From positions 62,615 through 126,614 of the forward strand of contig CAZBLH010000002.1 of NCBI GenBank assembly GCA_964492775.1: a DNA stretch of 64,000 bases. Direction: 5' to 3'. Both the position numbers and the translations under genes were made by a program. This DNA comes from an uncultured Eubacteriales bacterium. Lineage in GTDB: Bacteria > Actinomycetota > Coriobacteriia > Anaerosomatales > PHET01. The notes beneath the pieces are model-generated. The model had not been told where the DNA came from, searched no databases, and was given only the letters and a program-made list of their open reading frames with translations. Below, one piece after another: positions 2,855 through 45,163 of this stretch (position 1 is the first letter of the stretch; each line of letters starts with the position of its first letter).

Positions 2855-2888
2855 GGCAGCGTACCTTCCTGAAGAGGTGTCTTCTCTG

Positions 2889-7406: not shown

Positions 7407-7414
7407 TTGCCGAG

Positions 7415-8164: not shown

Positions 8165-8222
8165 CCGCTCGCCTACGCGGGCTGGGGTAGAATCGCGTGT
8201 AACCGACGCTGAAGGGGCATCG

Positions 8223-13042: not shown

Positions 13043-13387
13043 ATGCACGAGATGGGAATAGCGCAGGGCATTCTCGATGCTGCAGTCGATGCCGCCAACG
13101 ACGACGGCGGTCGTCCCATAACCGAAATACACGTGAGCGTCGGCGAACTCACAATGATTGTGGAGTTCGCGCTCAGATTCGCGTTCGATTCGCTGCGCGA
13201 AGGCACGCTGGCCGAGGGCGCCGAGCTCGTGGTGAACGCAGTCCCGGCGCGCTCGCGATGTGACGAATGCGGCCACGAGTACACCCATGACCGATTCCAG
13301 ATGCTCTGCCCGGCGTGCGGGTCACTCGCTGTGACGCTGCTCGCCGGCAAGGAGCTACAGATCGACTACATCGAGACGGAGGACTGA
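13043..13387 (+). CDS. hypA: Hydrogenase nickel-insertion protein HypA
   Basis: It starts MHEMGIAQGILD and has the zinc ribbon CDECGHEY...CPACGS. It is 114 aa and has an AGGAG RBS. Confidence 0.9.
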   Translation: MHEMGIAQGILDAAVDAANDDGGRPITEIHVSVGELTMIVEFALRFAFDSLREGTLAEGAELVVNAVPARSRCDECGHEYTHDRFQMLCPACGSLAVTLLAGKELQIDYIETED

Positions 13388-13390
13388 GCG

Positions 13391-14071
13391 ATGGCGAAGA
13401 TCGGCCTCGAGAAGCCCATCTTGGATCGCAACGACAAGATCGCCGAGCAGAACCGGGCTACCTTCGATTCCGCGGGGGTGTTCGTCCTCGATCTGATGGC
13501 CTCGCCTGGAGCGGGCAAGACGTCGACGATTCTCGCGACCATCGAGGCGCTTCGGGACCGGTACAACATCGCAGTGATCGAGGGCGACGTCGCCTCCAAG
13601 GTAGATGCCGAGAAGATCAAGGCGCGCGGCATACCTGCAGTACAGATCAACACTGGTGGCATCTGTCACCTGGAAGCCGACGTGATCTCGCGTGCAGTCA
13701 GCGAACTGGATCTCGCGGAGTTGGACCTGATCATCATCGAGAACGTCGGCAATCTCGTTTGTCCTGCCGAGTTCTACCTCGGCGAACACGCCAAAGTGAT
13801 GATCCTCTCGGTGCCCGAGGGCCATGACAAGCCGTACAAGTACCCGGATATGTTCCAGATCACGGAGGCTGTGATCTTGAACAAGGTCGACACGATGCCC
13901 GTCTTCAACTTCGACGGAGCCGAGTTCCGCTCGGTCGTTGGCCAGCTGAACCCGAAGGCACCCATCTTCCCGATCTCAGCGACGACAGGGGAGGGCGTGG
14001 GGGCGTGGGCCGCATGGATCGCCGAGCGTGTCGAGGAGGTCCGGGCGGCGGCGGGCAAGGAGCAGCGATGA
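13391..14071 (+). CDS. hypB: Hydrogenase nickel-incorporation GTPase HypB
   Basis: The P-loop is SPGAGKTST, followed by ENVGNLVCPA and LNKVD motifs. Confidence 0.9.
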   Translation: MAKIGLEKPILDRNDKIAEQNRATFDSAGVFVLDLMASPGAGKTSTILATIEALRDRYNIAVIEGDVASKVDAEKIKARGIPAVQINTGGICHLEADVISRAVSELDLAELDLIIIENVGNLVCPAEFYLGEHAKVMILSVPEGHDKPYKYPDMFQITEAVILNKVDTMPVFNFDGAEFRSVVGQLNPKAPIFPISATTGEGVGAWAAWIAERVEEVRAAAGKEQR

Positions 14072-19132: not shown

Positions 19133-19975
19133 GTGATCACCGCCGAGCGGATCGCCGAGGCGGTCTCCAGGCTCGTTCCAGAGGCCGCGTTCACCATGCG
19201 TGCGGATGTCGCACGCGCGCTCTCAGCGGCGGCTGAGTCGGAGCGCTCCGAGCGTGGGCGGGCGGTCCTCAGCCAGATGATCGAGAACGAGCGGTTGGCC
19301 CGTGAGGGCCGGATACCGCTGTGCCAGGACACAGGCACCGTCTGGGTACGCATCGAGCTTGGCAGCGAGGAGACGCTTACCGGGAACGTGCAGACCGAGG
19401 TCAACGCTGCGGTCGCCGAGGCGTACCGCTCGGCAGGCCTCAGGATGTCCGTTGTCTACGATGCCCTGCTGGAGCGCGTGAACACCGGCGACAACACGCC
19501 GGCGTTCATCGAGCTGGTCTGGCGGCCGGGTACCGGGGCGACCGTGAGCGTGATGCTCAAAGGCGGCGGCTCAGACAACGCGTCCCGAGTCGAGATGCTG
19601 CCCCCGAGCGCCGGCTATGCGGGCGTCAAGGAGTTCGTGCTCAAGACAGTCACGGAGCGGGCGACAGGAGCCTGCCCTCCGCTGCTTGTCGGCGTCGGCG
19701 TGGGCACGACCTTCGACAAGGTCGGGGCGCTTGCGAAGCGCGCGCTCCTGCGGGAGATCGGCACGATTCCCAAGGACGATCGCGTCGCAGAGTTGGAGGC
19801 GGAGCTGCTCGAGGCCGTCAACGCGACCGGAATCGGCCCTGCCGGGCTCGGTGGCGACACGACCGCGCTCGCGGTCCATCTTGCGACGGCGCCGTGTCAC
19901 ATTGCCGCTCTCCCGGTCGCCGTGAACCTGGGATGCTGCGCCGTGCGGAGCGCCACCGTCGAGGTGGTCTCGTGA
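19133..19975 (+). CDS. Fe-S class I fumarate hydratase / tartrate dehydratase, alpha subunit
   Basis: It has the IPLCQDTGTVWV motif and is 280 aa, like the N-terminal half of class I fumarases. Confidence 0.85.
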   Translation: MITAERIAEAVSRLVPEAAFTMRADVARALSAAAESERSERGRAVLSQMIENERLAREGRIPLCQDTGTVWVRIELGSEETLTGNVQTEVNAAVAEAYRSAGLRMSVVYDALLERVNTGDNTPAFIELVWRPGTGATVSVMLKGGGSDNASRVEMLPPSAGYAGVKEFVLKTVTERATGACPPLLVGVGVGTTFDKVGALAKRALLREIGTIPKDDRVAELEAELLEAVNATGIGPAGLGGDTTALAVHLATAPCHIAALPVAVNLGCCAVRSATVEVVS

Positions 19976-20553
19976 TGCCGCAGCGTGAACCGATTCGCAT
20001 CGACATGCCGGCATCGCGCGAGCGGCTTGCGGAGTTGCGCGCTGGCGACGAAGTCCGGTTGTACGGCCCCGTCTACACGGCGCGCGATGCGACACATGTG
20101 CGCTTGCTTGAAGAGCTGCGCACAGACGGTGTGCTGCCGTACGGGCTCATTGGTCAGACGCTCTTCTATGCGGGGCCGACGCCAGCGGTGGCGGGGCGCC
20201 ACGGCGGCGCAGTCGGTCCGACGACCGCCAAACGCATGGACTTCGCCACACCGGAGCTCCTGGCGGCGGGTATCGTTGCGACCATCGGCAAGGGTACTCG
20301 CAGCGAAAAGGTACGTGAGGCGTGCCGGGCCACCGGCAGCGTGTACTTCGCTGCGGTGGGCGGTGCTGCTGCCCTGCTCGCGTCGCACGTCGCATCGGCC
20401 GAGACGGTAGCCTATCCTGAGCTCGGCACAGAAGCGCTGGTGCGCATGGTGCTCGACGGATTCCCTGCGTGGGTCGCGATCGACTCGGCGGGTATTGACC
20501 TGTATGCAACCGCGCCTCGGCAATGGCGCGATACGTTAGCGAGTGTCGAGTGA
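19975..20553 (+). CDS. Fe-S class I fumarate hydratase, beta subunit
   Basis: This is an internal ATG at 19975 in ORF 19321..20553, and it overlaps the alpha-subunit stop (TGATG). Motifs are GDEVRLYGPVYTARDATH, YAGPTP and IGKGTR. Confidence 0.85.
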   Translation: MPQREPIRIDMPASRERLAELRAGDEVRLYGPVYTARDATHVRLLEELRTDGVLPYGLIGQTLFYAGPTPAVAGRHGGAVGPTTAKRMDFATPELLAAGIVATIGKGTRSEKVREACRATGSVYFAAVGGAAALLASHVASAETVAYPELGTEALVRMVLDGFPAWVAIDSAGIDLYATAPRQWRDTLASVE

Positions 20554-23668: not shown

Positions 23669-23744
23669 GCCGACGTAGCTCAGCTGGTAGAGCAGCGCAC
23701 TCGTAATGCGCAGGCCAGGGGTTCGAGTCCCCTCGTCGGCTCCA
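23669..23744 (+). tRNA. tRNA-Thr (anticodon CGT)
   Basis: A cloverleaf can be read by eye: acceptor GCCGACG/CGTCGGC, D-arm GCTC-AGCTGGTA-GAGC, anticodon stem GCGCA/TGCGC with loop CTCGTAA, and T-arm AGGGG-TTCGAGT-CCCCT. The discriminator is T and CCA is encoded. Confidence 0.9.
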
Positions 23745-23754
23745 CGAACGTATA

Positions 23755-23785
23755 CAGGGACTCAGCCGAGTCCCTGTTTTCTTTT
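23755..23785 (+). terminator. Rho-independent terminator after tRNA-Thr
   Basis: CAGGGACTC-agcc-GAGTCCCTG followed by TTTTCTTTT. Confidence 0.75.
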
Positions 23786-24016
23786 CCGCTTCCGCACATG
23801 TACCCGGGGCGCGAAAGCGGTACCCTTAACAGAGGTAAGGCTGTGTTTGCCGCTTACCGTGGAAACTCGGCCGTTCACCGAAGGGATGCGCCGTTTAGCT
23901 GGTAGGTCCCGGGTCGCGGTGTGGTAGTGTCCGACGACCCCGCCCGCCTTGCCCAGAGAGCCTGTCTGGACTCAGCGCGTGCGGTCGTGGCGGAATAGTA
24001 CGCGAGGAGGTGGACC

Positions 24017-24379
24017 GTGGAACTTGAGGGCATCGTCATCACCGTATTCATGGTGCTCGGCGCCTTGTTCGCGGCGGTCGTCTTCGCCACCTCGGCACTG
24101 CTCGGACCGTCCAAGCCCTCCGCGGCCAAGGGTGCAACCTATGAGTGCGGCGTCGACTCGGTTGGGCCCCCCTGGGTGCGGTTCCGTGCTGGCTACTACG
24201 TCTATGCGCTCCTGTACGTGATCTTCGATATCGAGACCGTGTTCCTGTATCCCTGGGCGGTCACGTTCGGTCAAGCGGGTGTGGGTTGGTTCGTGTTCGC
24301 CGAGATGGTCGTGTTCGTGACCATTCTGGTCGCCGGCTTGGCGTACGCCTGGAAGGAGGGCGCACTCAGGTGGCGCTAG
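24017..24379 (+). CDS. nuoA: NADH-quinone oxidoreductase subunit A
   Basis: It is 120 aa with 3 TM helices and the motifs YECG and [12 protein letters not shown]. Confidence 0.9.
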
Positions 24380-24876
24380 ACCGACTGACAGGCGAGGACT
24401 CGATCCTCTTCATCCGGAGCGAGCAGCTGTTCGACTGGGCCCGCCGGCGTTCGCTGTGGTACATGGCCTTCGGCATCGCGTGCTGCGCGATCGAGGGGCT
24501 GATGCACGCCTCCGGCCCGCGCTTCGACTTCGATCGTCACGGAGTGTTCTTCCGGGCCAGCCCGCGCCAGGCCGATGTGATGATCGTCGCCGGCACGGTG
24601 AACCACAAGATGGCTGACACGGTGAAGAAGCTCTACGACCAGATGCCTGAGCCCAAATGGGTCGTGGCGATGGGCGCGTGCGCCTCCACCGGAGGTCCAT
24701 TCCGCGAGTACCCCAACGTCGTGCTGGGCGTCGACAAAGTCGTGCCTGTCGATGTCTACATCCCGGGCTGTCCTCCTCGGCCCGAGTCGGTGCAGTACGC
24801 GTTCCTGACGCTCATGGACAAGATCAGCGCGAGGACGGAGGAGCGGCTTGAGGCCAGACGCGATGCACATCGCTGA
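24370..24876 (+). CDS. nuoB: NADH-quinone oxidoreductase subunit B
   Basis: The GTG at 24370 follows GGAAGGAGGG and lies within ORF 24145..24876. Motifs are [26 protein letters not shown] and PGCPPRPE (N2 cluster ligands). Confidence 0.9.
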
Positions 24877-25324
24877 CATCCTCGCGCGCGTCGGCGTCGA
24901 TGGGGGAGTGAGTGCCGAGATCGAGCAGGTTGAGCCGCTCGGCCCGGTTCTGCGCGTCGATGCCAGCGACACCGCTGCGGCCCTCGCGGCGCTGAAGGAC
25001 TCGGATCTCGCCTACGTGATGCTGGTGGACTTGTTCGGCATCGACATCGGCGAGGCGGTCGACATCGTCTACCACGTCCGCTCGCTGTCGAGTACCGGCG
25101 ATGCGTATCTCAAGGCGCGCTACGAATACGGGTCGGCGCTAACGAGCGTATGGAAGGTGCATCCCGCCGCGCTCTTGCCCGAGCGGGAGTGCGCCGAGAT
25201 GTTCGGGCTTTCCCTTGAGGGGCATCCCAATCCCAAGCGGCTGCTGACAGTCGAGGGCGCGATGCTACCCCCGCTTCTGAAGTCGACGGAGATCCGAACG
25301 GCTGAGGAGGTGAGGTCCCGGTGA
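24848..25324 (+). CDS. nuoC: NADH-quinone oxidoreductase subunit C
   Basis: It is 30-kDa-subunit-like ([24 protein letters not shown]). The start is the TTG at 24848 (GGAGGAG 4 nt upstream) or the ATG at 24863. Confidence 0.8.
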
Positions 25325-26529
25325 GCGATCCGCGTAGCACCGTCCGGCATGTCGGCTGGCTGGCCGACGCGCCAGCTTGCGACATCGAGGACCTGCCGCT
25401 TTCGATCCGGCGTGCGCCCTGCGGTGTGGACGAGCTCGAGACCGAGCACCTCGTCTTGAACATGGGTCCCCAGCACCCGTCGACGCATGGGGTGCTGCGC
25501 GTGCTGCTCGAGCTGGATGGCGAAGAGATCATCACCGGCGAAGCCGCGATCGGATACCTGCACCGCGGTATCGAGAAGCTCGCCGAGCACCGACGCTACA
25601 GCGCAGTGGGTACTCTCATGGACCGCGGCGACTATGTCTCCGGGATCCACGGCGAGCTGGCGTTCGCGTTGGCCGCCGAGAAGGTCGCAGGCATCGAGGT
25701 ACCTCGCCGTGCGAGCTGGCTACGGGTGTTGGTCGGCGAGTTGAACCGCCTCTCAAGCCACCTGGTGTGGTACGGCACGATGGGGCTGGACGCGGGCGCG
25801 ATGGGGCAGTTCCTGTACGCATTGCGCGACCGCGAGAACCTGCTTGACATCCTTGAAGACATCAGTGGCCAGCGGATGATGTTCAACTACGTCCGTCCGG
25901 GCGGCGTGGTCGCGGACATCACGCCGACGGCGGAGGCAAAGATCCGCGAGTTCCTCACCACGATTGACAAGTACCTCACCGAGCATGAGGAGCTGCTCGG
26001 CGGAAACGAGATCTTCCAAGCGCGCATGCGTGGTGTCGGCGTGATCGACAAGGACATGGCGGTCGCGTTCGGTCTCACCGGTGCGAACCTGCGCGCCTCG
26101 GGTGTGAGCTTCGACGTGCGTCGTGACCGCCCGTACGCCGCGTACGCCGAGATGGAGTTCGACGTCCCCACCGAGCGGACCGGCGACTGCTACTCGCGCT
26201 ACCTCGTGCGCATGGCCGAGATGCGCGAGTCCGTGCGCATCCTGCGCCAGTGCATGGACGGCCTGCCTGAGGGTGAGTACACCGCGAAAATGCCGAAGGT
26301 CTTCAGGCCTCCGGCAGGGGAGGCGTACGCTGCTGTCGAATCCCCGCGCGGTGAGCTTGGCGTCCATCTGGTGAGCGACGGCACAGAGCGTCCTTACCGG
26401 ATGCACTACCGCCCACCAGCGCTCTACGCGCTGCAGGCAGGCGAGGTGCTCTTGCCCGGACAGCTTATCGCGGATGCGGTTGTGACGCTCGGCAGCCTCG
26501 ACTTCGTGCTCGGGGAGATCGACCGATGA
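25321..26529 (+). CDS. nuoD: NADH-quinone oxidoreductase subunit D
   Basis: Motifs are LNMGPQHPSTHGVLR, GYLHRGIEKL and a C-terminal LDFVLGEIDR. It has no NiFe-type CxxC pairs. Confidence 0.9.
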   Translation: MSDPRSTVRHVGWLADAPACDIEDLPLSIRRAPCGVDELETEHLVLNMGPQHPSTHGVLRVLLELDGEEIITGEAAIGYLHRGIEKLAEHRRYSAVGTLMDRGDYVSGIHGELAFALAAEKVAGIEVPRRASWLRVLVGELNRLSSHLVWYGTMGLDAGAMGQFLYALRDRENLLDILEDISGQRMMFNYVRPGGVVADITPTAEAKIREFLTTIDKYLTEHEELLGGNEIFQARMRGVGVIDKDMAVAFGLTGANLRASGVSFDVRRDRPYAAYAEMEFDVPTERTGDCYSRYLVRMAEMRESVRILRQCMDGLPEGEYTAKMPKVFRPPAGEAYAAVESPRGELGVHLVSDGTERPYRMHYRPPALYALQAGEVLLPGQLIADAVVTLGSLDFVLGEIDR

Positions 26530-27518
26530 GCCTGCTATACGCGACATTGCGCGTGCTTGCGGCGCTCAGCCTGATGCTCATGAACGGCGTCGTGCTGATT
26601 TTGATGCTACGCAAGGTGCTCGGCCGTCTGCATCTGCGGCTGGGTCCGATGGAGCTGGGTCCGCAGGGCATGTTCCAGACGACCGCCGACGTGCTCAAGC
26701 TGCTCACGAAGGAAGACATCACCCCCACGCGCGTCGACAAGGCGCTGTTCTACATCGCGCCGCTGATCGTGTTCGTCCCGTCGCTCGCGGCCTACGGGGC
26801 GCTGCCGTTCTCGGGGGAATGGGTCATCGCCGACCTCAACCTGGGCCTGCTCTGGACGTTCTCGATCATGGCAATCATCCCGCTGGGAATCGTCGCGGCA
26901 GGTTGGGCGAGCTACAACAAGTGGTCGCTGATGGGCGGAATGCGGGCCGTCGCCCAGCAGGTGAGCTACGAGGTCCCGCTGCTTCTCGCAGCGCTTCCTC
27001 CCGTCATGATCGCCGGGTCCCTCAAACTGAGCGATATCGTGCGGGCTCAGATTGACTCGGTGTGGTTCTGGCTGCCATGCCTGCCTGCGTTCGTTCTGTT
27101 CCTCATCGCCGGGCTGATGGAGTCGAACCAGACTCCGTTCGACATGTCCGAGGCCGACTCAGAGCTCGTCGCGGGTTACGCGACCGAGTACTCGTCGATG
27201 AAGTTCGGACTGCTGTTCCTCGCTGAGTTCTCCAACACTTTCATCCTCGCCTCGTTGATCGTCACGCTGTTCCTTGGCGGATGGTCACTGCCCTTCGTGC
27301 CCGATACGGTCATCGGCGCCCCCGTCGTGTTCGCGCTCAAGACGTACGCGGTGATCTTCGTTCTGATGTGGATACGCGGCACCATGCCGCGCGTGCGCAT
27401 CGATCAGATGCTGGCCTTCGGCTGGAAGGCCATGCTTCCGCTCTCGCTCGCGTGGGTCATGGTGACTGCCGCGGTCATCAAGGTCTGGCCTCTGCTCTTC
27501 GGAGGTGTGGGCCGATGA
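26526..27518 (+). CDS. nuoH: NADH-quinone oxidoreductase subunit H
   Basis: The ATGA overlaps the nuoD stop. It is polytopic, with the motifs LRKVLGRLHLRLGP, ESNQTPFDMSEADSELVAGY and EYSSMKF. Confidence 0.9.
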   Translation: MSLLYATLRVLAALSLMLMNGVVLILMLRKVLGRLHLRLGPMELGPQGMFQTTADVLKLLTKEDITPTRVDKALFYIAPLIVFVPSLAAYGALPFSGEWVIADLNLGLLWTFSIMAIIPLGIVAAGWASYNKWSLMGGMRAVAQQVSYEVPLLLAALPPVMIAGSLKLSDIVRAQIDSVWFWLPCLPAFVLFLIAGLMESNQTPFDMSEADSELVAGYATEYSSMKFGLLFLAEFSNTFILASLIVTLFLGGWSLPFVPDTVIGAPVVFALKTYAVIFVLMWIRGTMPRVRIDQMLAFGWKAMLPLSLAWVMVTAAVIKVWPLLFGGVGR

Positions 27519-28033
27519 AGATCTGGGGCTCGGGGCTGCTTAAGGGTATGGCCATCACGATGCGCAACATGTTGCGCACGCCGATCACTGTCCAGTACCC
27601 GCACCAGAAGGTCGTGCTGCCCGAGCGTGCGCGCTGGGCTTTGCAGATGAAGTACGACGAGGCGGGCGAGCACAAGTGCACGGCGTGCCTGATCTGCGAA
27701 CGGACATGTCCCGACTACATCATCGACATCGAGGTCACGACCGCCGAGGACAGAAGCAAGCACATCGACGCCTACACCTATGAGATCGGAGCCTGCATGA
27801 TGTGCGGGCTGTGCGTGGAGGCGTGCCCGTTCGACGCCATCCAGATGGGCAAAGACTACGAACTCGCCCGAACCTCAAGCGAACAGCTCACCATCCGCCT
27901 GCTGGAAGACACTCCGGCAGTCTCGCCGAAGCGCAAAGCCGCGGCTGCGAGTGAGAACTCGGCGCGCACCTCTGCGGCCGAGTCGGCCGCCACCTCCGCC
28001 GCTGAGTCGGCGCCTGAGGAGGTGGGCTCGTGA
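27515..28033 (+). CDS. nuoI: NADH-quinone oxidoreductase subunit I (2x[4Fe-4S]) with a C-terminal Ala/Ser/Glu-rich extension
   Basis: The ATG at 27515 (ATGA overlap) lies inside ORF 27281..28033. The cluster motifs are CTACLICERTCP and CMMCGLCVEACP. A ~40-aa tail contains the tandem SAAESAAT/SAAESAP. Confidence 0.9.
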   Translation: MKIWGSGLLKGMAITMRNMLRTPITVQYPHQKVVLPERARWALQMKYDEAGEHKCTACLICERTCPDYIIDIEVTTAEDRSKHIDAYTYEIGACMMCGLCVEACPFDAIQMGKDYELARTSSEQLTIRLLEDTPAVSPKRKAAAASENSARTSAAESAATSAAESAPEEVGS

Positions 28034-28536
28034 ACGACATCCTCGGAGTGGTCGTGTTCGTCGCACTGGCTGCCTTCTCCATCGGTGGAGCTATGGCGAT
28101 GGTCACCTCGCGCAACGTCGTTCACGCCGCGTACTGGTTGCTCGCGGTCTCGGCCGCTGCCGCAGGGCTCTTCGCACTGCTCGAGGCGGGCTACGTGGCA
28201 CTGATCCAGTTGCTGGTCTACGCCGGTGCCGTCGCGATTCTCAACATCTTCACGATCATGATCACTATGCGTCGTCGGGAAGACGCGGTCCGCCCACGCG
28301 ATCTCTCCTGGACCGGGTTCGTTCTGACCGCAGGCTTCTTCGGGCTCGTGACGTACGCGGTGCTCGGCAGCCCCCTTCCCGAGGCCGTGCCCGTCGCCGA
28401 GTTCCCCGGGTTGCTTGAGTTCGGCAGGCAGCTCTTCTCGGCACAGGGTTGGGCTCTGCCGTTCGAGGTTGCCTCTCTGGTACTCACTGCTGCGCTGGTC
28501 GCCGCGGTGTGGTGGTCGAAGGAGGACGACGAGTGA
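28030..28536 (+). CDS. nuoJ: NADH-quinone oxidoreductase subunit J
   Basis: GTGA overlap with the nuoI stop. It has 5 TM helices and the motif ALIQLLVYAGAVAILNIF. Confidence 0.85.
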   Translation: MNDILGVVVFVALAAFSIGGAMAMVTSRNVVHAAYWLLAVSAAAAGLFALLEAGYVALIQLLVYAGAVAILNIFTIMITMRRREDAVRPRDLSWTGFVLTAGFFGLVTYAVLGSPLPEAVPVAEFPGLLEFGRQLFSAQGWALPFEVASLVLTAALVAAVWWSKEDDE

Positions 28537-28844
28537 GCGTTGGCCTGACGCCATATCTGATCCTCGCGGCCGCGCTGTTCTCGATCGGGTTGTTCGGCGC
28601 CGTCTCGAAGAAGGGTGCCGTGCCGGTGCTCATGTCGCTCGAGCTCATGTCTGTGGCTGTCAGCCTGAACCTGCTCGCGTTCTCGAAGCATGTGACACCG
28701 GAGCAGATGACAGGACAGTACTTCACGGTCTTCTCAATGGTCATCTCGGCAGCTGAGATCGGTATCGGGCTCGCGCTCGTCATCGCGATATACCGCGCAT
28801 CGCGCACCGCCGAGCTGGCCGACATTTCGGACTTGAAGGGGTAG
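28533..28844 (+). CDS. nuoK: NADH-quinone oxidoreductase subunit K
   Basis: The GTG at 28533 (GTGA overlap) lies in ORF 28449..28844. It has 3 TM helices and the motifs LMSLELM and AAEIGIGLALV. Confidence 0.85.
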   Translation: MSVGLTPYLILAAALFSIGLFGAVSKKGAVPVLMSLELMSVAVSLNLLAFSKHVTPEQMTGQYFTVFSMVISAAEIGIGLALVIAIYRASRTAELADISDLKG

Positions 28845-28846
28845 CG

Positions 28847-30778
28847 GTGGACTGGGTCGCACTCATACCCCTGCTCCCGGCAGCGGCGTTTATTGCGCTT
28901 CTGCCTCTGTCGCGTGCTGTGCGCAACCGGATGCTCTGGCTGCCGGTCGCTGCGATGTCCGGCTCGCTCGCCCTTTCAGTCGCGTCGCTTATCGCAATAT
29001 GGCCGAGCGGCTCGGCTGAGGCGGCCTCCGGGCCCGCCTGGCGGCTGAGCTGGCCTCTTGCCTCTGTAGGTGGTGCGGATATCGGCCTGTCGCTGTCGCT
29101 CGACCCGCTCGCTGCAGCCACGCTTACCGTTGTCACGATCGTTGCCACAGGCGTACTGGTGTACTCGCTCGGCTACCTGCACCGTGACGACCGCCGAGGC
29201 TGGTACTTCGCAGTGGTCTCGCTGTTCACGTCGGCCATGCTTGCGCTCGTGCTCTCGGGGAACCTGCTTCTGACCTTCGCCATGTGGGAGGTCATGGGTT
29301 TGTGCTCGTACCTGCTCATCGGCTTCTGGCATGAGCTCGAGGCACCGCGCAAGGCCTCTCAGAAAGCGTTCCTCACCACGCGCATCGGCGATCTCGGCTT
29401 CCTGGTTGCGCTCTTCGCGATTTTCGCGAACACCGGCAGCTTCGACCTGGCGCAAGTTCTTCAGGCTGCGCCCGGCTGGGCCCCTGGGGTCGCGCTCGTT
29501 GTGGCGCTTGGACTGCTTTGGGCTGCGATGGGTAAGTCGGCGCAGCTGCCGCTACACGTGTGGCTCCCTGACGCGATGGCCGGCCCGACGCCTGCGTCCG
29601 CGCTCATCCATGCGGCCACCATGGTCGCTGCTGGCGTGTTCGTCGTCGCCCGCATGTTGCCTGTCTTCGAGCTGGTGCCCGGAGTCATGAGCGCGATGCT
29701 TGTGATTGGAGCCGTGACCGCGCTCGTCGGCGGACTGCTCGCAGCGGTCCAGCACGATGTGAAGAAGGTGGCGGCCTACTCGACGATCAGCCAGCTCGGC
29801 CTCATGTTCGTGGCGCTCGGCGCGGGGAGCGCGACCGCGGCGCTGTTCCACCTGACCACGCACGCCTTCTTCAAGTCCCTGATATTCCTCGGCAGTGGCG
29901 TGATCATCCACTCCGCTCACACGCAGGACATGCGGGAGATGGGCGGGCTCGCGAAGCATCTGCCCGTCACGACCGTGACGTTTGGCATCGGATGCCTTGC
30001 GCTCGCCGGCGTACCGCCGCTGTCTGGCTTCTTCAGCAAGGACGAAATCCTTGCCGTCCTGCTGCATGATCAGCACTACGCGATCTTCGCCGTCGTGGTG
30101 CTCTCATCGGCGATCACCGCCTACTACGTCACCCGCCTGTGGTTCCGTGTCTTCACCGGACCCGAGCAGGGCCACGGCCTGCATGAGGCGCACTACTCAA
30201 TGCTCGCGCCGATGGTCGTGCTTGCCGCGATCACTCTGGTGGCCGGCTTCGGCACGACGCTGTTCGCCGGGCTGTTCGGCGAGACGGGCCACTTCCCGGG
30301 CCTCGACATGTGGCTCATCTCGTTCGCCGTCGCCGGGACGGGCATCGCTGCCGGCTGGTGGATCTACGGGCGCCGCTCGGCAGTCACGAACACGCGCGTG
30401 TGGAAGGACCGATTCGGCTACGCGTATGACGCGCTGGCGAACAAGCTGTACTTCGACCTCACGTACGAGAAGGTCTTCATTCGCGGCTACTTCGTGCTAG
30501 CGTCGGAGCTCAGCCGCTTCGACGCCAGGGTCGTCGATGGTGTCGTCAATGGAGCGGCCCGCGTCTGGTCGGTGCTTTCCGGCGGCATGTCGCTGTTTGA
30601 CGGCCGAGTTGTGGATGGCGCGGTGAACGGGCTTGCATCGGGAGCGAGGGCGCTCGGCAACTCGGCGCGTCGGATCCAGACCGGGCGGCTACAGGACTAC
30701 CAGCGGCTCATCGTGGGAGCCTCGCTCTGCCTGCTTATGGGCTTGTACGTACTGATGCTGGTGAAAGGGGCCGGATAA
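28847..30778 (+). CDS. nuoL: NADH-quinone oxidoreductase subunit L (antiporter-like)
   Basis: It is 643 aa, with WEVMGLCSYLLIGFW, GKSAQLPLHVWLPDAMAGPTPASALIHAATMV and a C-terminal lateral-helix region. Confidence 0.9.
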   Translation: MDWVALIPLLPAAAFIALLPLSRAVRNRMLWLPVAAMSGSLALSVASLIAIWPSGSAEAASGPAWRLSWPLASVGGADIGLSLSLDPLAAATLTVVTIVATGVLVYSLGYLHRDDRRGWYFAVVSLFTSAMLALVLSGNLLLTFAMWEVMGLCSYLLIGFWHELEAPRKASQKAFLTTRIGDLGFLVALFAIFANTGSFDLAQVLQAAPGWAPGVALVVALGLLWAAMGKSAQLPLHVWLPDAMAGPTPASALIHAATMVAAGVFVVARMLPVFELVPGVMSAMLVIGAVTALVGGLLAAVQHDVKKVAAYSTISQLGLMFVALGAGSATAALFHLTTHAFFKSLIFLGSGVIIHSAHTQDMREMGGLAKHLPVTTVTFGIGCLALAGVPPLSGFFSKDEILAVLLHDQHYAIFAVVVLSSAITAYYVTRLWFRVFTGPEQGHGLHEAHYSMLAPMVVLAAITLVAGFGTTLFAGLFGETGHFPGLDMWLISFAVAGTGIAAGWWIYGRRSAVTNTRVWKDRFGYAYDALANKLYFDLTYEKVFIRGYFVLASELSRFDARVVDGVVNGAARVWSVLSGGMSLFDGRVVDGAVNGLASGARALGNSARRIQTGRLQDYQRLIVGASLCLLMGLYVLMLVKGAG

Positions 30779-30780
30779 GC

Positions 30781-32238
30781 GTGCTGACCGCTATCGTCTT
30801 CCTACCGCTGCTCGGCGTGCTCGGCTGCGCGCTCGTGCCAAGGAGCCACGCCGGACTCGCCCGCTGGGTCGCGCTCGTTGTCACCGTGGCCGATCTCGTG
30901 CTGGCCGCCGTGATGGTCGCTCGCTTCGCCCCCGATGGCGGGCTGCAGTTTGCCGAGCGGCTCTCCTGGATCCCGCAGGCTGACATCCAGTACTTCCTCG
31001 GCGTGGACGGCATTTCGATGCCGCTGGTCGCTCTCTCGGCGCTCCTGACCTTCCTTGCGGTCATCGCGAGCTGGAAGATCGACGCCAACCCACGCATGTA
31101 CTTCGCGATGATGCTGCTTCTGCAGGTGGGCATGAACGGCGTCTTCTCTGCACTGGACCTCGTGCTCTTCTACGTCTTCTGGGAGCTCGTGCTCGTGCCG
31201 ATGTACTTCCTCATCTCCAAGTGGGGCGGCCCGCGGCGCGAGTACGCGGCGATCAAGTTCTTCCTCTACACGCTACTGGGCTCGGTGTTCATGCTCGTCG
31301 GCATCGTCGCTCTCTACCTCTACACCGGCACCTTCGATATTGTCGAGCTTGCCGAGAAGGGCTCCGCGCTCGCACCCGGCGTCCAGTGGTGGCTGTTCGC
31401 CGCATTCTTCCTCGGCTTCGCCGTGAAGGTCCCGGTCTTCCCGCTGCATACGTGGCTTCCTGACGCGCACGTCGAGGCGCCGACGGCGGGCTCGGTACTG
31501 CTCGCGGGCGTGCTGCTGAAGATGGGGACGTACGGCTTCATGCGGATCTCGCTGCCGGTGCTTCCTGATGCATTCGCGAGCTGGCAGTGGGCGATCGGGC
31601 TTCTGGCGGTGATCTCGATCGTGTACGGAGCGGCGGTAGCCTTCGCCCAGAGCGACCTCAAGAAGCTGGTCGCCTACTCGTCCGTGTCGCACATGGGCTT
31701 CGCCATGCTCGGCATAGCCTCGGGCACGGCTGCGGGACTCTCCGGCGCGATGGCGGTGAATGTGAGCCATGGACTGGTCACCGGCATGCTATTCCTGATG
31801 GTCGGCATGCTCTACGACCGCACGCACACCCGCGAAATCTCCAAGCTCTCCGGCGTCGTTGGGGCGACACCCGTGATCGGTGGCTTACTCGCCTTCGCTT
31901 CCTTCGCCTCGCTCGGCCTGCCCGGCTTGTCGGGATTCGTCGGCGAGTTCCTGTCGCTCCTCGGGGCGTGGGCATCCGCGGCGGTTCCCGCGTGGATGGT
32001 GCTTGTGGCGGCGCTCGGCGTGCTTCTCGGCGCCGCCTACATCCTGTGGATGCTGCAGCGTGTGGCGTTCGGCGAGCCGAGCGAGGCCATGGCCGGCCAG
32101 GCCGACGCGTCGCTTCGCGAGATCGCGACGGTGCTGCCGCTCGTCGCGCTCGTCGTCGTGATCGGCCTGTACTGGTCGTCGCTGCTGCGATACGTGGACC
32201 CCGCGGTTACTGAGCTCGCTCGGCTGCTGGGGGCGTAG
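30781..32238 (+). CDS. nuoM: NADH-quinone oxidoreductase subunit M
   Basis: Motifs are FYVFWELVLVPMYFLI and VKVPVFPLHTWLPDAHVEAPTAGSVLLAGVLLKMG. Confidence 0.9.
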   Translation: MLTAIVFLPLLGVLGCALVPRSHAGLARWVALVVTVADLVLAAVMVARFAPDGGLQFAERLSWIPQADIQYFLGVDGISMPLVALSALLTFLAVIASWKIDANPRMYFAMMLLLQVGMNGVFSALDLVLFYVFWELVLVPMYFLISKWGGPRREYAAIKFFLYTLLGSVFMLVGIVALYLYTGTFDIVELAEKGSALAPGVQWWLFAAFFLGFAVKVPVFPLHTWLPDAHVEAPTAGSVLLAGVLLKMGTYGFMRISLPVLPDAFASWQWAIGLLAVISIVYGAAVAFAQSDLKKLVAYSSVSHMGFAMLGIASGTAAGLSGAMAVNVSHGLVTGMLFLMVGMLYDRTHTREISKLSGVVGATPVIGGLLAFASFASLGLPGLSGFVGEFLSLLGAWASAAVPAWMVLVAALGVLLGAAYILWMLQRVAFGEPSEAMAGQADASLREIATVLPLVALVVVIGLYWSSLLRYVDPAVTELARLLGA

Positions 32239-33609
32239 ATGACCGGCTACTGGCTCATAGCGCCCGAGATTCTGCTGATTGCTGCGGTCGCGTGGGCGCT
32301 CTTTGCCGAGCGGCTGCCCGGCGGCGACCGCTCGGCACCGTGGGTCGGGTTCGTGCTCGCGATAGCAGCAGGTGCCCTGTCGGCACTAGCCACGACGGGC
32401 GCGGCCTACTTCGGCGACCTCATCGTGGTAGACGCGGCGGCGCGTTTTGCGCGTGTGGCCATCGCGGCGATCACGGCACTGTGGATGCTGTGGACCGCAG
32501 GCCGAGGGCGTGGCCGCATCCGCGAGGCGGTCGCGCTCGCTCTGCTGTCGGCGATCGGGTGCCTTCTGATGGCAAGCGCCCAGGAGATCGTCACCATTGT
32601 GCTCGCGCTCGAGCTCGCGACGATGCCGGCCTACGTGCTCATCGGGTACCGGCGCTGGCGGGTGTCGGGGCTCGAGGGAGCCCTCAAGTACTTCCTGCTC
32701 TCGATGCTCACGACACTCGTGATGCTGTACGGGCTGTCGTTCGTGTACGGCCTCACGGGCACCACGCGCCTGGCCGAGCTCGACCTCTCCGGCACCGGCG
32801 CGCTCGGCATCCTCGCCGTCACGCTCACACTGGTCGGCCTGCTCGCCAAGCTTTCGGCCGCGCCGTTCCATTACTGGGCTCCCGACGCCTACGAGGGCGC
32901 CGAGTCCTGGTCCGTCGCGTTCGTATCGACCGTCCCCAAGCTCGCCGGTGCCGTCGCGGTCGTGCGCTTCGTGTTAGCTCTCGCCGACTCCTCGGCCGGG
33001 CTCGGGCCGGCACTGCTCGTTGCATCCGTCACCTCCATGGTGCTTGGCAACCTCGCTGCGCTCTCGCAGGATGATGTCCGGCGCATGATGGCATACTCGG
33101 GTGTGGCCCACACGGGATACCTGCTTCTCGCTGCGGCGACGCTCTCTCCCTCCGGATACGGTGCCGCGGTCTTCTATGCCGCTGCCTATGCGCTCCCATC
33201 GCTCGGCGTGATGCTCGTGGCCGCCGAGGTGGGGGACCGAGTGAGCGACTTCGGCAGCGCCGCCGCCAGACGCCCCGTCGTGGCGTGGTCGGTGGTGGCG
33301 ATGCTCGTCTCGCTGATCGGCATTCCGCCGCTGCTTGGCTTCTTCGGCAAGCTCTACCTCTTCGGCACTGCGGTTGATGCGGGGCTTGGAGTGTGGGTGG
33401 TGCTGGCGGTTGCGATGAGCGTGGTATCCGCCGCCTACTACTTGCGCATCGTGCGCGCCATGTTCGCTACCGATTCGGAGCAGGGGAGCACCGAGGTTCG
33501 CGGATCGGTGGCCGCCGACGCCGCCATCATCGCAACGGCAGTACTCACGTTCGCGCTCGGGCTTGCCGCAGGACCGCTGTTTTCCGCGCTCGGCGCACTG
33601 ATGCCGTAA
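32239..33609 (+). CDS. nuoN: NADH-quinone oxidoreductase subunit N
   Basis: It has LAKLSAAPFHYWAPDAYEGAESW and is the last gene of the operon. Confidence 0.9.
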   Translation: MTGYWLIAPEILLIAAVAWALFAERLPGGDRSAPWVGFVLAIAAGALSALATTGAAYFGDLIVVDAAARFARVAIAAITALWMLWTAGRGRGRIREAVALALLSAIGCLLMASAQEIVTIVLALELATMPAYVLIGYRRWRVSGLEGALKYFLLSMLTTLVMLYGLSFVYGLTGTTRLAELDLSGTGALGILAVTLTLVGLLAKLSAAPFHYWAPDAYEGAESWSVAFVSTVPKLAGAVAVVRFVLALADSSAGLGPALLVASVTSMVLGNLAALSQDDVRRMMAYSGVAHTGYLLLAAATLSPSGYGAAVFYAAAYALPSLGVMLVAAEVGDRVSDFGSAAARRPVVAWSVVAMLVSLIGIPPLLGFFGKLYLFGTAVDAGLGVWVVLAVAMSVVSAAYYLRIVRAMFATDSEQGSTEVRGSVAADAAIIATAVLTFALGLAAGPLFSALGALMP

Positions 33610-35626: not shown

Positions 35627-36556
35627 CTAGCGGCGCCTCAGGTCGCGGGCTGCGGCCATCGCTGCGCGAGCGCCCTGGCCTACAGCCGTAACGATCTGCT
35701 TGCCGTACTCGTCGGTGACGTCGCCGGCGGCGTACACACCCGGGGCTGAGGTCGCGCCGGACTTGTCGACGATGATCTCGCCGTGCTCGTTCAGGTCGAC
35801 CAGGCCGAGAGCGAACTCCTCGGCGGAGATGGAGCCGGCCTCGATGAAGACGCCGCGAACGCGGATGTCGAGTTCGGTGCCGCCCACCTCGACCTTGAGG
35901 TTTCGTACGCGCTCGTCGCCCTCGATAGCGATGGGCTTGGTGTTCTGCCACAGCTCGATGTAGGGGTGGACCTTGACCTTGTTGATGAGAGCCTCGGGAC
36001 CCTCGAGCTCGCCCTCGAGGACGAGAATCACCTTGATGTCGAGCGAGGCGATCTGCAGGGCGGCGTCTGCGGCGGACTCCGCGGCGCCCACCACGGCGAC
36101 GGTCTTGTCGGCGAAGAGTGCCGCATCGCAGGTCGCGCAGTAGGAGACGCCGCGCCCTACGAGCTCCTTCTCGCCCGGGATAGCGAGTCGCTTCGGGGCC
36201 TTGCCGGTCGCGATGATGACGGACTTGCCGTGGATCGTCAGACCCTCACGGGTGAAGACGTCATACCCATCGCCTTCAGGGTAGATGGAGTTCACGAGCT
36301 GGTCCTTGAGGACCTTCACGCCAAAACGGCGGATGTGGTCCTTGAAGTGGTTAACCAGCTCGGTGCCGCTGACGGGCTCCCAGCCCATGAAGTTCTCGAC
36401 GCGGTGAGCGGCACGCATCTGTCCGCCGATGAAGCCGGCGACGACCGCAGTGGAGAGTCCTGAACGGGCCGCATACATCCCGGCGGTCAGGCCTGCAGGG
36501 CCGCCGCCGATGACTACCACGTCGAAGTTGCCGGCGTGTCCTTTGATCTCGCTCAT
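35627..36556 (-). CDS. Thioredoxin-reductase-like flavoprotein lacking the canonical NADPH-binding motifs
   Basis: This lies in ORF 35627..36610, and the ATG at 36556 follows AAAGGA. FAD motifs are VVVIGGGPAGLTAG and the C-terminal GVYAAGDV. The redox-active CATC (GVSYCATCDAALF) is present. Where TrxB has GGGNSA and HRRxxxR, this protein reads VGAAESA and LVLEGELEG. Confidence 0.7.
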   Translation of the reverse strand: MSEIKGHAGNFDVVVIGGGPAGLTAGMYAARSGLSTAVVAGFIGGQMRAAHRVENFMGWEPVSGTELVNHFKDHIRRFGVKVLKDQLVNSIYPEGDGYDVFTREGLTIHGKSVIIATGKAPKRLAIPGEKELVGRGVSYCATCDAALFADKTVAVVGAAESAADAALQIASLDIKVILVLEGELEGPEALINKVKVHPYIELWQNTKPIAIEGDERVRNLKVEVGGTELDIRVRGVFIEAGSISAEEFALGLVDLNEHGEIIVDKSGATSAPGVYAAGDVTDEYGKQIVTAVGQGARAAMAAARDLRRR

Positions 36557-36721
36557 TCGAAGTCCTTTCACTCGGGTTCCCGGCGTTAGGTCCGCCCGAC
36601 ATTCTTCCATATCACGGCGTCAGCTTCACATGTTGCCGTGACGTCGATTGCGTGCCACCGTTGTGACACCCATCTCGGGCATGCTTAGAGGCGACCGACC
36701 GTCCTCGACGAAAGGGACGCC

Positions 36722-43601: not shown

Positions 43602-43669
43602 GCGGACAATCCCGGGTGGCACGCCGGCGCATGCGTGGGCCGGCAGAACGCGAGCACGGAGGCACGGTT

Positions 43670-44401
43670 GTGACCACATGGCTCGTCGCATCGGTCGCGT
43701 TGGTCTCGTTCCTCTCCGGGGCAACTGCCTCGACCATCGGGTTTGGGGTCGGTAGCCTGCTGACACCTGTAGTCGCGCTCTGGATCGGTGCCGAAGACGC
43801 AGTCACGTTGGTGGCGATACCGCATCTGGCCGGCGGACTGTTGCGCGGGTGGCAATTGCGGCGGGCGATCGACTGGCAGCTTGCCGGGCGGTTCGGACTT
43901 CTGAGTGCACTGGGCGCCCTCCTCGGAGCGTTTGTGTTTGCGCGCATCTCATCGTCTCTCCTCACGGGAGTGCTCGGCGCCCTGCTCGTGATGACGGCGG
44001 CCACTGGCGTCAGGGGATGGCCCCGGCGCTGGTCGCCACGGACACCGGCGGTATCAACTCTCGGCGCGCTATCAGGGTTCTTCGGAGGCGTCGTAGGCAA
44101 CCAAGGGGGACTCCGTGCCGCAGCGCTTTCGGCGTTCGATCTGGCACCACCAGTGTTCGTAGCCACCTCGACGGTCATCGGAATCATGATCGATCTCGTT
44201 CGAGTTCCGGTCTATTTGAGCGGCGGCTCGCCACGAGCAGCCGGACTGTGGCCAATGGTTGGGATAGCAACTGTTGGCGTGCTTGCTGGGACGGTGGCCG
44301 GTGACCGGGTCTTGCTCGGTCTGTCACCCGAGCGATTCCGAATCGCTGTATCCATCGCAGTGGGGATCCTGGGGCTCTGGTTCATCCTGGGGTCGGCGTA
44401 A
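43670..44401 (+). CDS. TauE/SafE-family membrane transporter (probable sulfite/anion exporter)
   Basis: This lies in ORF 43562..44401, and I prefer the GTG at 43670. It has ~7-8 TM helices with two internally related halves, and glycine-rich helix motifs (GFGVGSLLTP; GFFGGVVGNQGG). Confidence 0.6.
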   Translation: MTTWLVASVALVSFLSGATASTIGFGVGSLLTPVVALWIGAEDAVTLVAIPHLAGGLLRGWQLRRAIDWQLAGRFGLLSALGALLGAFVFARISSSLLTGVLGALLVMTAATGVRGWPRRWSPRTPAVSTLGALSGFFGGVVGNQGGLRAAALSAFDLAPPVFVATSTVIGIMIDLVRVPVYLSGGSPRAAGLWPMVGIATVGVLAGTVAGDRVLLGLSPERFRIAVSIAVGILGLWFILGSA

Positions 44402-44467
44402 CAAGCCTCTCCGGCGAACGCGCTACCATACGGCTGGAACGTGAGCCGAGCTGGACGGGAGGGACCC

Positions 44468-44929
44468 ATGTCGCCAGCGAGAATCGTCCTGTGGGTCCGG
44501 GGCGGGGTCGCGCGGGCGATTACGGTGACCTTGCTCGCGCTCAGCCTCCTGTCTGTGCCGTTTGGTGTTGCAGCGTGCGCGCAGAGCGCGGATGTCGGCG
44601 ATGACGCCATAGCCGCGGCCTTCGCTGAGCGGCGCAGTGACGTGCAGGTCACCGGTGAGGGAACGGTGGTTCGGCTACTTGCCGATGATAAGGACGGAAG
44701 CCGTCACCAACGTTTCATCATCGAGCTCGCCTCCGGCCAGACGCTTCTAGTCAGCCACAATATAGATCTTGCTCCAGGAATCGACGCCCTGGCGACGGGT
44801 GACATCGTGGCGTTCTGCGGTGTGTACGAGTACAACGAACAGGGTGGGCTCGTGCACTGGACTCACCATGATCCCGACGGGCAGCACGAGCCCGGGTGGA
44901 TCGAGTACGAAGGTCGTCGTTACGAGTGA
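44468..44929 (+). CDS. DUF3465-like lipoprotein
   Basis: It has a lipobox (SVPFGVAAC). The segment HQRFIIELASGQTLLVSHNIDLAP...GGLVHWTHHDPDGQHEPGWIEYEGRRYE matches the DUF3465 pattern as I recall it. Confidence 0.55.
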   Translation: MSPARIVLWVRGGVARAITVTLLALSLLSVPFGVAACAQSADVGDDAIAAAFAERRSDVQVTGEGTVVRLLADDKDGSRHQRFIIELASGQTLLVSHNIDLAPGIDALATGDIVAFCGVYEYNEQGGLVHWTHHDPDGQHEPGWIEYEGRRYE

Positions 44930-44941
44930 GGTGACGGGTGC

Positions 44942-45163
44942 ATGAAGCTCGACGAATGCGTCATCGAGCAGTACCGCGGCGACAAGCTGGTCCGTGTGTT
45001 CGTCCCCTCAGGGGATGAAGCACGTCCGTGGCGTATGGTCGTCAACGGCAAGAGCTATCTGAGAACCAACGGGTGGGTTCTCTCCAAGGTCCTGCCAACG
45101 CTCGCTGATGGCTCGCAGGTCGTGACGAAGGTGGTTCCGCTCGGCGACTGGGAGCTGCTATAG
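44942..45163 (+). CDS. Hypothetical small protein (73 aa)
   Basis: This is an ORF only, with no recognisable motif. Codon third positions are mostly G/C, as in neighbouring genes. Confidence 0.35.
   Translation: MKLDECVIEQYRGDKLVRVFVPSGDEARPWRMVVNGKSYLRTNGWVLSKVLPTLADGSQVVTKVVPLGDWELL

Follow-up and report, generated by a model that had tools for sequence, protein, structure and literature searches.

Which electron donor feeds a complex I without the NADH-dehydrogenase module NuoEFG (the N-module)? For non-photosynthetic bacteria this is a real question for the field, and we found in the literature no experiment or structure that defines the donor of their 11-subunit enzymes (NUO11), a class reviewed since Moparthi and Hagerhall (2011). 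The question is raised here by a 64,000-nucleotide (nt) stretch of an uncultured Coriobacteriia bacterium (contig CAZBLH010000002.1, positions 62,615 to 126,614), referred to as the window, in which positions 24017-33609 (plus strand) hold eleven co-directional genes in the order nuoA-B-C-D-H-I-J-K-L-M-N. The original prediction, made from the bare sequence, had described them as an 11-subunit complex I (nuoABCDHIJKLMN) without NuoEFG, and both the Pfam assignments and the lack of any E, F or G match in the window bear this out. According to our analysis, the operon almost certainly encodes a functional quinone-reducing pump of the NUO11 type.

The operon and its missing module

Pfam assigns each of the eleven genes to one complex I family (E-values 1e-20 to 1e-107); with such family scores and the canonical nuo gene order, a chance match is not an issue. 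The longest open reading frames of nuoB, nuoC, nuoI and nuoK begin too early, and their starts were refined. Gene calls from a 4.7 kb Logan contig of identical sequence (L001) supplied the starts of nuoC, nuoI and nuoK, and that of nuoB was taken from the call in a closed relative genome (L002), because nuoB is cut at the end of the Logan contig. The genes, with product lengths in amino acids (aa), are as follows:

24017-24379, plus strand: nuoA, 120 aa, membrane subunit ND3 (PF00507, E = 1.3e-36)
24370-24876, plus strand: nuoB, 168 aa, cluster N2 (PF01058; NCBIfam NF005012, 227 bits, cut-off 116)
24863-25324, plus strand: nuoC, 153 aa, short 30-kDa subunit (PF00329, E = 1.3e-20; also called at 153 aa on the Logan contig)
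25321-26529, plus strand: nuoD, 402 aa, 49-kDa quinone-site subunit, short type (PF00346, E = 2e-93; NCBIfam NF004739, 464 bits, cut-off 360)
26526-27518, plus strand: nuoH, 330 aa, ND1 (PF00146, E = 1.3e-107)
27515-28033, plus strand: nuoI, 172 aa, two [4Fe-4S] motifs (N6a/N6b; Fer4 families, PDB TYKY/Nqo9 matches; TIGR01971, 117.5 bits, cut-off 113)
28030-28536, plus strand: nuoJ, 168 aa, ND6 (PF00499, E = 1.2e-28)
28533-28844, plus strand: nuoK, 103 aa, ND4L (PF00420)
28847-30778, plus strand: nuoL, 643 aa, antiporter-like, with a long C-terminal extension (PF00361 and PF00662; NF005141, 576 bits, cut-off 556)
30781-32238, plus strand: nuoM, 485 aa, antiporter-like (PF00361 and PF01059; TIGR01972, 599 bits)
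32239-33609, plus strand: nuoN, 456 aa, antiporter-like (PF00361, E = 1.6e-54)

The stop of nuoD and the start of nuoH overlap in an ATGA at 26526-26529, just as had been predicted, and throughout the operon the remaining junctions are overlaps of 4-14 nt or spacings of 0-2 nt; the eleven genes form one tightly coupled operon. A Pfam scan of about 60 window genes gave no match to the NuoE (PF01257), NuoF (PF01512) or NuoG families. As positive control we used a metagenomic contig with a 14-subunit operon (L085), from which NuoE, NuoF and residues 1-600 of NuoG were taken. Searched with tblastn against the window and 84 loci (1.44 Mb), these three sequences gave no match at E<=1e-3, and two NuoF signature regular expressions, both matching the control NuoF, found nothing in the window and loci (1.42 Mb). 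The locus is thus a contiguous nuoABCDHIJKLMN with nuoH directly after nuoD and not the operon of a canonical 14-subunit NADH:quinone oxidoreductase, as nuoE, nuoF and nuoG are not in it and its nuoD-nuoH junction is a 4-nt overlap.

The same layout is found well beyond the window. A NuoD scan of one genome per GTDB species yielded 80 related nuo loci, and no homologue of NuoE, NuoF or NuoG lies within about 10 kb of any of them. Coriobacteriia-like loci (56-82% NuoD identity) were counted where they hold both nuoD and nuoH; nuoH starts 0-60 nt past the end of the nuoD alignment in 63 of these 65, and the two exceptions (L067 and L068, with gaps of 137 and 232 nt) look like frameshifted assemblies. 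The full A-B-C-D-H-I-J-K-L-M-N order is retained in about 65 related loci, among them the closed 2.5 Mb chromosome OW818687.1, where the nuo neighbours are also those of the window (topA, mdh, fumAB, tmk, holB and PSP1 upstream, htrA and rlmH downstream). The claim that the missing genes are no assembly gap therefore holds, given the 4-nt overlap, the same junction and order in about 65 loci, and one closed chromosome. Judged by these loci, the 11-gene layout is a conserved trait of the clade and not an assembly artefact. That no N-module assembles with the window complex we consider very probable.

Some variation was seen within the clade. NuoC and NuoD are fused in some members. The metagenome-assembled genome (MAG) ELA247 (L023, 1-8400) carries a second, divergent nuo-like cluster in the order H-I-K-L-N-M, with 36-53% identity, directly upstream of nuoABCD, and the MAG MFD00032.bin.2.33 has two full 11-gene operons on different contigs (L012, L068). 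These extra clusters could be paralogues or strain mixtures.

Cofactor sites and enzyme type

NuoB and NuoI retain the ligands of their iron-sulfur clusters. According to PDB alignments, cluster N2 of NuoB is bound by the tandem C38/C39, C104 and C134, all invariant in 65 sequences, and GCPPRPE is among its motifs; the tandem and the two further cysteines expected of this subunit are thus present. NuoI carries the two CxxCxxCxxxCP motifs of N6a and N6b, CTACLICERTCP and CMMCGLCVEACP, whose eight cluster cysteines are invariant in 60 sequences. In NuoD, residues H56, Y105, T153, D157, F164 and D394 align with H38, Y87, T135, D139, F146 and D401 of Thermus Nqo4, and these quinone-site residues are conserved in 80 relatives. 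The [NiFe]-binding CxxC motifs are gone from NuoD: its N-terminal site reads GPQHPSTHG and its C-terminus LDFVLGEIDR, and the vestigial [NiFe] positions 86 and 403 (Thermus numbering) are occupied by Asp and Val. A pair of cysteines in the N-terminal extension of NuoD, C20 and C34, was considered as an extra metal site and rejected, as the pair is not conserved in relatives.

The membrane part is equally complete. By Pfam and NCBIfam it comprises three Mrp-antiporter-like subunits (NuoL, M and N, with an extended NuoL) together with NuoA, H, J and K. The key Glu, Lys and Asp residues of the membrane subunits were compared over 51-64 sequences (all key residues of the enzyme together over 51-80); E148, K230, K343, K398 and D399 of NuoL are invariant, and conservation extends to E135, K216, K247 and E389 of NuoM, E125, K204, K234 and K371 of NuoN, E37 and E75 of NuoK and the acidic residues of the NuoH loop. 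The role of such residues in pumping is established from work on the Escherichia coli and Thermus enzymes. We consider the enzyme to be quinone-reducing because the NuoD and NuoB residues fit published criteria of quinone reactivity (PMC4758237). The intact, near-invariant ligands, the quinone-site and pump residues and the lack of [NiFe] ligands indicate a working quinone-reducing proton pump that is neither a hydrogenase nor a relic; on these alignments, the Q-module and the P-module are intact and under purifying selection.

Compared with known systems, the window enzyme is closest to other N-module-less enzymes of the general Nuo type. The likeness to cyanobacterial NDH-1, archaeal Fpo/Fqo and enzymes of several anaerobes, put forward in the original prediction, agrees with published reviews (PMC11238625, PMC4758237). 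The 14-subunit complex I of Thermus thermophilus (Nqo1-14, PDB 4HEA/2FUG) and Mycolicibacterium smegmatis (PDB 8E9G) has homologous Q- and P-modules with identical cluster ligands and quinone-site residues (332-336 bits for NuoD, 171-172 bits for NuoB), but in the window NuoE, F and G are missing and both NuoC, with its 153 aa, and NuoD are short. The window enzyme shows no particular kinship with the 14-subunit enzyme of actinobacteria, the best four NuoD matches in the PDB being equidistant (M. smegmatis 336 bits, Chaetomium 333, Thermus 332, Thermosynechococcus NdhH 330). Cyanobacterial and plastid NDH-1, a ferredoxin:plastoquinone oxidoreductase (PDB 6HUM) and the best-documented case of ferredoxin as donor, likewise has an 11-subunit Nuo-homologous core without N-module and with NdhH at the 330 bits just given. 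It differs in its quinone, in an NdhH that is of the long type and aligns in two stretches, and in its need for extra ferredoxin-binding subunits (NdhL-Q, S, V), none of which is encoded in the window operon.

Archaeal Fpo/Fqo, the F420H2:phenazine/quinone oxidoreductase, shares the 11-subunit core, and its D subunit is likewise of the short type: the FpoD model aligns end-to-end with the window NuoD in one stretch. Methanothrix is thought to use ferredoxin without FpoF. The window differs from Fpo/Fqo in lacking FpoF and FpoO, and its acceptor would be menaquinone instead of methanophenazine; vestigial [NiFe] cysteines are kept in Fpo (PMC4758237) and absent from the window NuoD. Group 4 membrane-bound [NiFe] hydrogenases and Mbx/Mbs (PDB 6CFW, 6U8Y, 7Z0S) have common ancestry with the window enzyme, the same module architecture and a large subunit that also lacks the NuoD insertion, but their matches to NuoD reach only 131-231 bits (MBS 231, MBH 160, formate hydrogenlyase 131), and the window has three antiporter-like subunits, a NuoL-type extension, quinone-site residues and replaced [NiFe] cysteine ligands; without the [NiFe]-binding CxxC motifs in NuoD it falls outside this group. 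In NCBIfam the window subunits come under generic Nuo models and stay far below the cut-offs of the NDH-1 models (NdhH 346 bits against 583, NdhI 80 against 302) and the Fpo models (FpoD 327 against 600, FpoH 242 against 475, FpoI 63 against 180, FpoK 87 against 145, FpoL 343 against 1050); neither NDH-1 accessory genes nor an FpoF-like gene was found in the window. By these scores and motifs, the window enzyme is neither an NDH-1, an Fpo nor a hydrogenase.

An experimentally studied counterpart is the nuoABCDHIJKLMN operon of Desulfitobacterium hafniense DCB-2 (ACL21757-67). It has the same eleven genes in the same order without N-module, the tandem-Cys N2 site and the quinone-site His and Tyr, in an organism that is likewise of the menaquinone type. 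It belongs to another phylum and lacks the N-terminal extension of NuoD of about 40 aa, which is specific to the Coriobacteriia clade. The window NuoD aligns end-to-end and in one stretch with PRK12322 (463 bits, below the cut-off of 522), which we take to be the NuoD model of Bacillus-type 11-gene operons. Rotenone sensitivity has been shown for the D. hafniense enzyme, on which growth with lactate or pyruvate depends but growth with H2 does not, and the authors of that work favour a ferredoxin model while still calling the donor unresolved (PMC11238625).

The length of NuoD is a further trait that may separate the two operon types. Relative to Thermus Nqo4, the window NuoD lacks about 25 residues (approximately Nqo4 308-332, at window NuoD residues ~321-329); the aligned M. 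smegmatis NuoD is longer by about 41. Alignments to nearly all PDB complex I and NDH-1 chains fall into two stretches around this gap, whereas MBH, MBS, the FpoD model and PRK12322, a 366-residue NuoD model, align in a single stretch. The short form is common to all 80 related loci, and among cluster representatives at 50% identity the length differences are bimodal, at ~0-10 and ~25-35 residues. Where the context was sampled, short NuoD is followed by nuoH (the 80 loci, L084 and L086, including P0122 with 55% identity and a fused NuoCD, and P0126 with 48%), while long NuoD, in loci L083 and L085, is followed by nuoE (P0125, 48%) or nuoE-F-G (P0132, 48%). The exception to this match of indel and operon is cyanobacterial and plastid NdhH, of the long type though without N-module. 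In a crude neighbour-joining phylogeny of 119 NuoD representatives, an analysis that the original prediction had proposed, the window falls into an all-short clade of 12, but the deeper separation of short and long forms is not clean, and we do not infer from it a monophyletic or ancestral short type. The short-type NuoD argues weakly against an N-module borrowed from elsewhere in the genome and against recent decay from an actinobacterial 14-gene operon; what can be drawn from it is limited, because NdhH is long-type without N-module and the E. coli complex I structure paper holds nothing specific on a NuoD insertion at the N-module interface. If the link holds, a nuoD fragment alone could predict an N-module-less enzyme.

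Electron donor, acceptor and direction

Precedent for the operon exists within the lineage, the organism being an actinobacterium of the Coriobacteriia that stands near the Anaerosomatales/OPB41. The best named NuoD matches are 'Coriobacteriia bacterium' MAGs; the closest Coriobacteriia and 'Actinomycetes' MAGs have 77-82% NuoD identity to the window and Anaerosomatales-labelled MAGs only 67-69%, and the window may therefore belong to a sister lineage. Two cultured members of the Anaerosomatales/OPB41, Anaerosoma tenue M08DHB (MCK8114634-44) and Parvivirga hydrogeniphila Es71-Z0120 (MCL4079286-96), carry nuoNMLKJIHDCBA loci (Khomyakova et al., 2022; PMC9686372). Both lack nuoEFG genome-wide, ferredoxin has been proposed as donor, and both have pyruvate:ferredoxin oxidoreductase (PFOR), multihaem cytochromes and a group 1i cytochrome b-linked uptake hydrogenase while lacking complexes II and III; P. 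hydrogeniphila has a second, partial nuo locus (PMC9686372). The window shares with them the class Coriobacteriia, the gene order, the lack of NuoEFG and the proposal of an alternative donor, and the genomic context is the same: multihaem cytochromes, genes for the maturation of [NiFe] hydrogenase, and no complex II or III. Both the feature and its ferredoxin interpretation are thus already known for the lineage, and the enzyme class has long been known.

Several other genes of the window bear on the electron path:

2841-3953, plus strand: 7-haem cytochrome (7 CxxCH) with MtrA/DmsE/MtrC-like domains
4065-5468, plus strand: 11-haem cytochrome (11 CxxCH) with an NrfH/NapC-like quinol-dehydrogenase part
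5598-9569, plus strand: three-gene cluster of a B12-binding radical SAM protein, MenG/UbiE and an amidohydrolase
7415-8164, plus strand: MenG/UbiE methyltransferase, above its NCBIfam cut-off
13043-14071, plus strand: hypA and hypB, nickel insertion for [NiFe] hydrogenase
35627-36610, minus strand: thioredoxin-reductase-like flavoprotein, 327 aa

The two adjacent multihaem cytochromes probably form a module that carries electrons from quinol to the cell exterior, of the kind known from Anaerosomatales. The cluster at 5598-9569, with a radical SAM protein of the TIGR04190 family (633 bits, cut-off 500) and, as third gene, a TRZ/ATZ or aminofutalosine-deaminase-like amidohydrolase, may serve quinone modification or biosynthesis. 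Together, MenG/UbiE, the cytochromes and hypA/hypB fit a quinone-linked chain. The original prediction had also pointed to a multihaem quinol oxidase and a thioredoxin-reductase-like protein without NADPH motifs, and the window does hold both two multihaem cytochromes and this flavoprotein. The latter has the redox-active CATC, a second Rossmann motif GAAESAA instead of GGGNSA and no HRRxxxR, and reaches 266 bits against TIGR01292 (cut-off 343), consistent with an enzyme that does not use NADPH and would be, for example, ferredoxin-dependent. The hypA/hypB pair is flanked by tatC on one side and by an HD-domain gene and topA on the other, with no hydrogenase structural gene adjoining in the window.

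We posit that a low-potential one-electron carrier would dock on the face of NuoI that is covered by NuoG in 14-subunit enzymes and exposed here. The carrier would most likely be ferredoxin reduced by pyruvate:ferredoxin or 2-oxoacid:ferredoxin oxidoreductases; electrons would then pass from N6a via N6b and N2 to (methyl)menaquinone in the NuoD/NuoB/NuoH pocket, protons would be pumped via NuoH/A/J/K and NuoN/M/L, and the quinol would be reoxidised by the NrfH-like multihaem cytochromes. With midpoint potentials of about -400 mV or lower for ferredoxin, against -320 mV for NADH and about -74 mV for menaquinone, the driving force would be comfortably enough for full pumping with menaquinone. 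As a whole, a NUO11 quinone-reducing pump with low-potential carrier input is the explanation we prefer, with some reserve, while the case for reduced ferredoxin as the main donor appears evenly balanced. A ferredoxin-centred energy metabolism, at which the original prediction had hinted, is to be regarded as an inference.

Several observations weigh against this proposal. NuoI is the only product with ferredoxin motifs among window reading frames of at least 40 aa, and the window thus holds no ferredoxin gene. An obvious basic extension for docking is lacking in NuoI, whose C-terminal tail (about 35 aa) is low-complexity and rich in Ala, Ser and Glu. The FpoI tail, for comparison, is Lys-rich. 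As the NuoI tail also varies in length among relatives, its reading as a ferredoxin-docking extension found no support. Neither an NdhS-like gene nor any other accessory or donor gene lies in or beside the operon, where only housekeeping neighbours were found, the same as in the closed relative genome. Finally, the description of both cultured Anaerosomatales gives respiratory quinones as 'not detected' (PMC9686372), which leaves the acceptor unproven even for the lineage. This report is an odd fit with the same nuo operon, a conserved quinone site, a cytochrome b-linked hydrogenase and putative quinol-oxidising cytochromes.

The alternatives differ in direction, donor or acceptor. In reverse operation, the proton-motive force would push electrons uphill from menaquinol to ferredoxin and so supply low-potential reductant to an autotrophic metabolism (reductive glycine pathway, PFOR), the menaquinol being filled by an uptake hydrogenase or formate dehydrogenase that faces the periplasm. 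This mode has been discussed for NUO11 enzymes, and the D. hafniense complex is dispensable with H2 as donor (PMC11238625). The cultured relatives are lithoautotrophic on H2 or formate, with a group 1i uptake hydrogenase and a PFOR that needs reduced ferredoxin (PMC9686372), and the window itself carries hypA and hypB (13043-14071). No sequence feature sets the direction, however, and reverse flow is compatible with forward operation; as the main explanation we regard it as unlikely. The same holds for a dedicated input module that would be encoded elsewhere and dock on NuoI/NuoD in place of free ferredoxin, such as an FpoF/FqoF-like F420H2 dehydrogenase subunit, a flavodoxin, a soluble hydrogenase or formate dehydrogenase, or a lineage-specific protein. 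Some actinobacteria make F420. Precedents are FpoF, the flavodoxin-linked subunits of Campylobacter and cyanobacterial NdhS/V/O (PMC11238625, PMC4758237), no universal partner has been found for NUO11 enzymes, and a role as docking platform for several donors has been proposed (PMC11238625). Yet no such gene lies in the operon, the window or the 10-kb flanks of the 80 related loci, which are housekeeping (PSP1/holB/tmk upstream, htrA/rlmH downstream), the Fpo and Ndh models score far below their cut-offs, and F420 goes unmentioned for the cultured relatives (PMC9686372).

NADH could still be the donor if nuoEFG or a second 14-gene operon were encoded elsewhere, with the window operon borrowing the N-module or being a redundant paralogue. 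The window is only 64 kb of the genome, and NuoEF-like genes that stand alone are often found as components of formate dehydrogenases or hydrogenases (PMC11238625). Against this stand the genome-wide absence of nuoEFG in both cultured relatives (PMC9686372), the 11-gene layout conserved across the clade, a NuoD of the type that adjoins nuoH in the sampled contexts, where long types precede nuoE or nuoE-F-G, and the D. hafniense genes annotated as 'nuoEFG', which turned out to encode formate dehydrogenase subunits (PMC11238625). We therefore consider NADH highly improbable. More doubtful still, and hardly to be expected, is an enzyme that uses no quinone and serves another membrane acceptor or a quinone-independent role, as discussed for Dehalococcoides. 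That genus retains a Nuo of 11 subunits, and its complex for organohalide respiration is described as working without quinone-mediated transfer (PMC6005880); quinones 'not detected' in the cultured Anaerosomatales would also agree with this. On the other side are the full set of quinone-reactivity residues and the conserved tandem-Cys N2 site (criteria in PMC4758237), the MenG/UbiE gene above its cut-off and the nearby NrfH-like cytochrome, and little weight attaches to a quinone assay that comes out negative on anaerobes of low biomass. A broader variant, either a lineage-specific and as yet unrecognised input partner that would be encoded away from the operon and take the place of free ferredoxin, NADH or F420H2 or, if the relatives are truly quinone-free, a non-quinone membrane acceptor such as a multihaem cytochrome, seems to us quite unlikely, more so than reverse flow and less so than NADH; if true, either case would be a chemistry of input or output that is new among complex I-type pumps.

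Leader region, remaining genes and meaning of the locus

Upstream of nuoA and elsewhere in the window the following features were recognized:

23669-23744: tRNA-Thr(CGT), upstream of the nuo operon
23754-23777: intrinsic terminator after tRNA-Thr(CGT)
23787-24016, plus strand: putative nuo promoter and 5' leader
19133-19975, plus strand: class I fumarase, alpha part of a split enzyme
about 19975-20553, plus strand: class I fumarase, beta part

Because the tRNA gene and its terminator lie directly upstream, the nuo operon appears to be transcribed as a separate unit, with a leader of about 240 nt. In this leader the direct repeat GCCG(C/T)T(T/C)A(C/G)C occurs in three copies that start at 23849, 23870 and 23890, spaced by 21 and 20 nt, and account for three of the seven matches of this degenerate 10-mer in the whole window (both strands). 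On their 3' side follows a conserved block, GTGTGGTAGTGTCCGAC, in degenerate form GTGTGGTA(C/G)TGTCCGAC, with a -10-like TAGTGT at about 23925-23930. The arrangement of repeats and -10-like block is kept upstream of nuoA in about ten close relatives. The repeats may be a transcription-factor site overlapping the -35 region, and a promoter function of 23787-24016 can be inferred. A sigma-70 consensus scan detected no promoter ahead of nuoA, Rfam found only tRNA in the whole window and thus no riboswitch or leader RNA before nuoA, and a search for a terminator between nuoN and htrA, which lies downstream, was negative.

These repeats are missing from more distant relatives (67-69% NuoD identity, Anaerosomatales-labelled MAGs among them). 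About 100-150 nt upstream of nuoA, four of their loci (L024, L036, L043, L048) carry a palindrome-like TTGTAAC-N4-GTTAC(G/A)TTGTC, with a variant in L019, whose half-sites resemble Rex or CRP-type operators. If it is such an operator, an enzyme that does not use NADH would be under redox-sensing control.

Two further observations concern the surroundings of the operon. In the closed relative genome a gene for an MFS transporter is inserted between the two fumarase halves (L002, 2447-5323). About 2.3 kb at 43602-45963, from thrB to the gene of an S49 peptidase, contain only two small minus-strand reading frames and have no Pfam or Rfam match.

The window operon is real, conserved and of an ordinary, long-known type. 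It adds one more intact example and no new handle on the donor question, and it has value for annotation, in that its nuo product should not be named an NADH dehydrogenase. For the organisms themselves, an N-module-less complex I probably serves many subsurface anaerobes, the iron- and sulfur-reducing actinobacteria of the OPB41/Anaerosomatales among them, as their main site of energy coupling.

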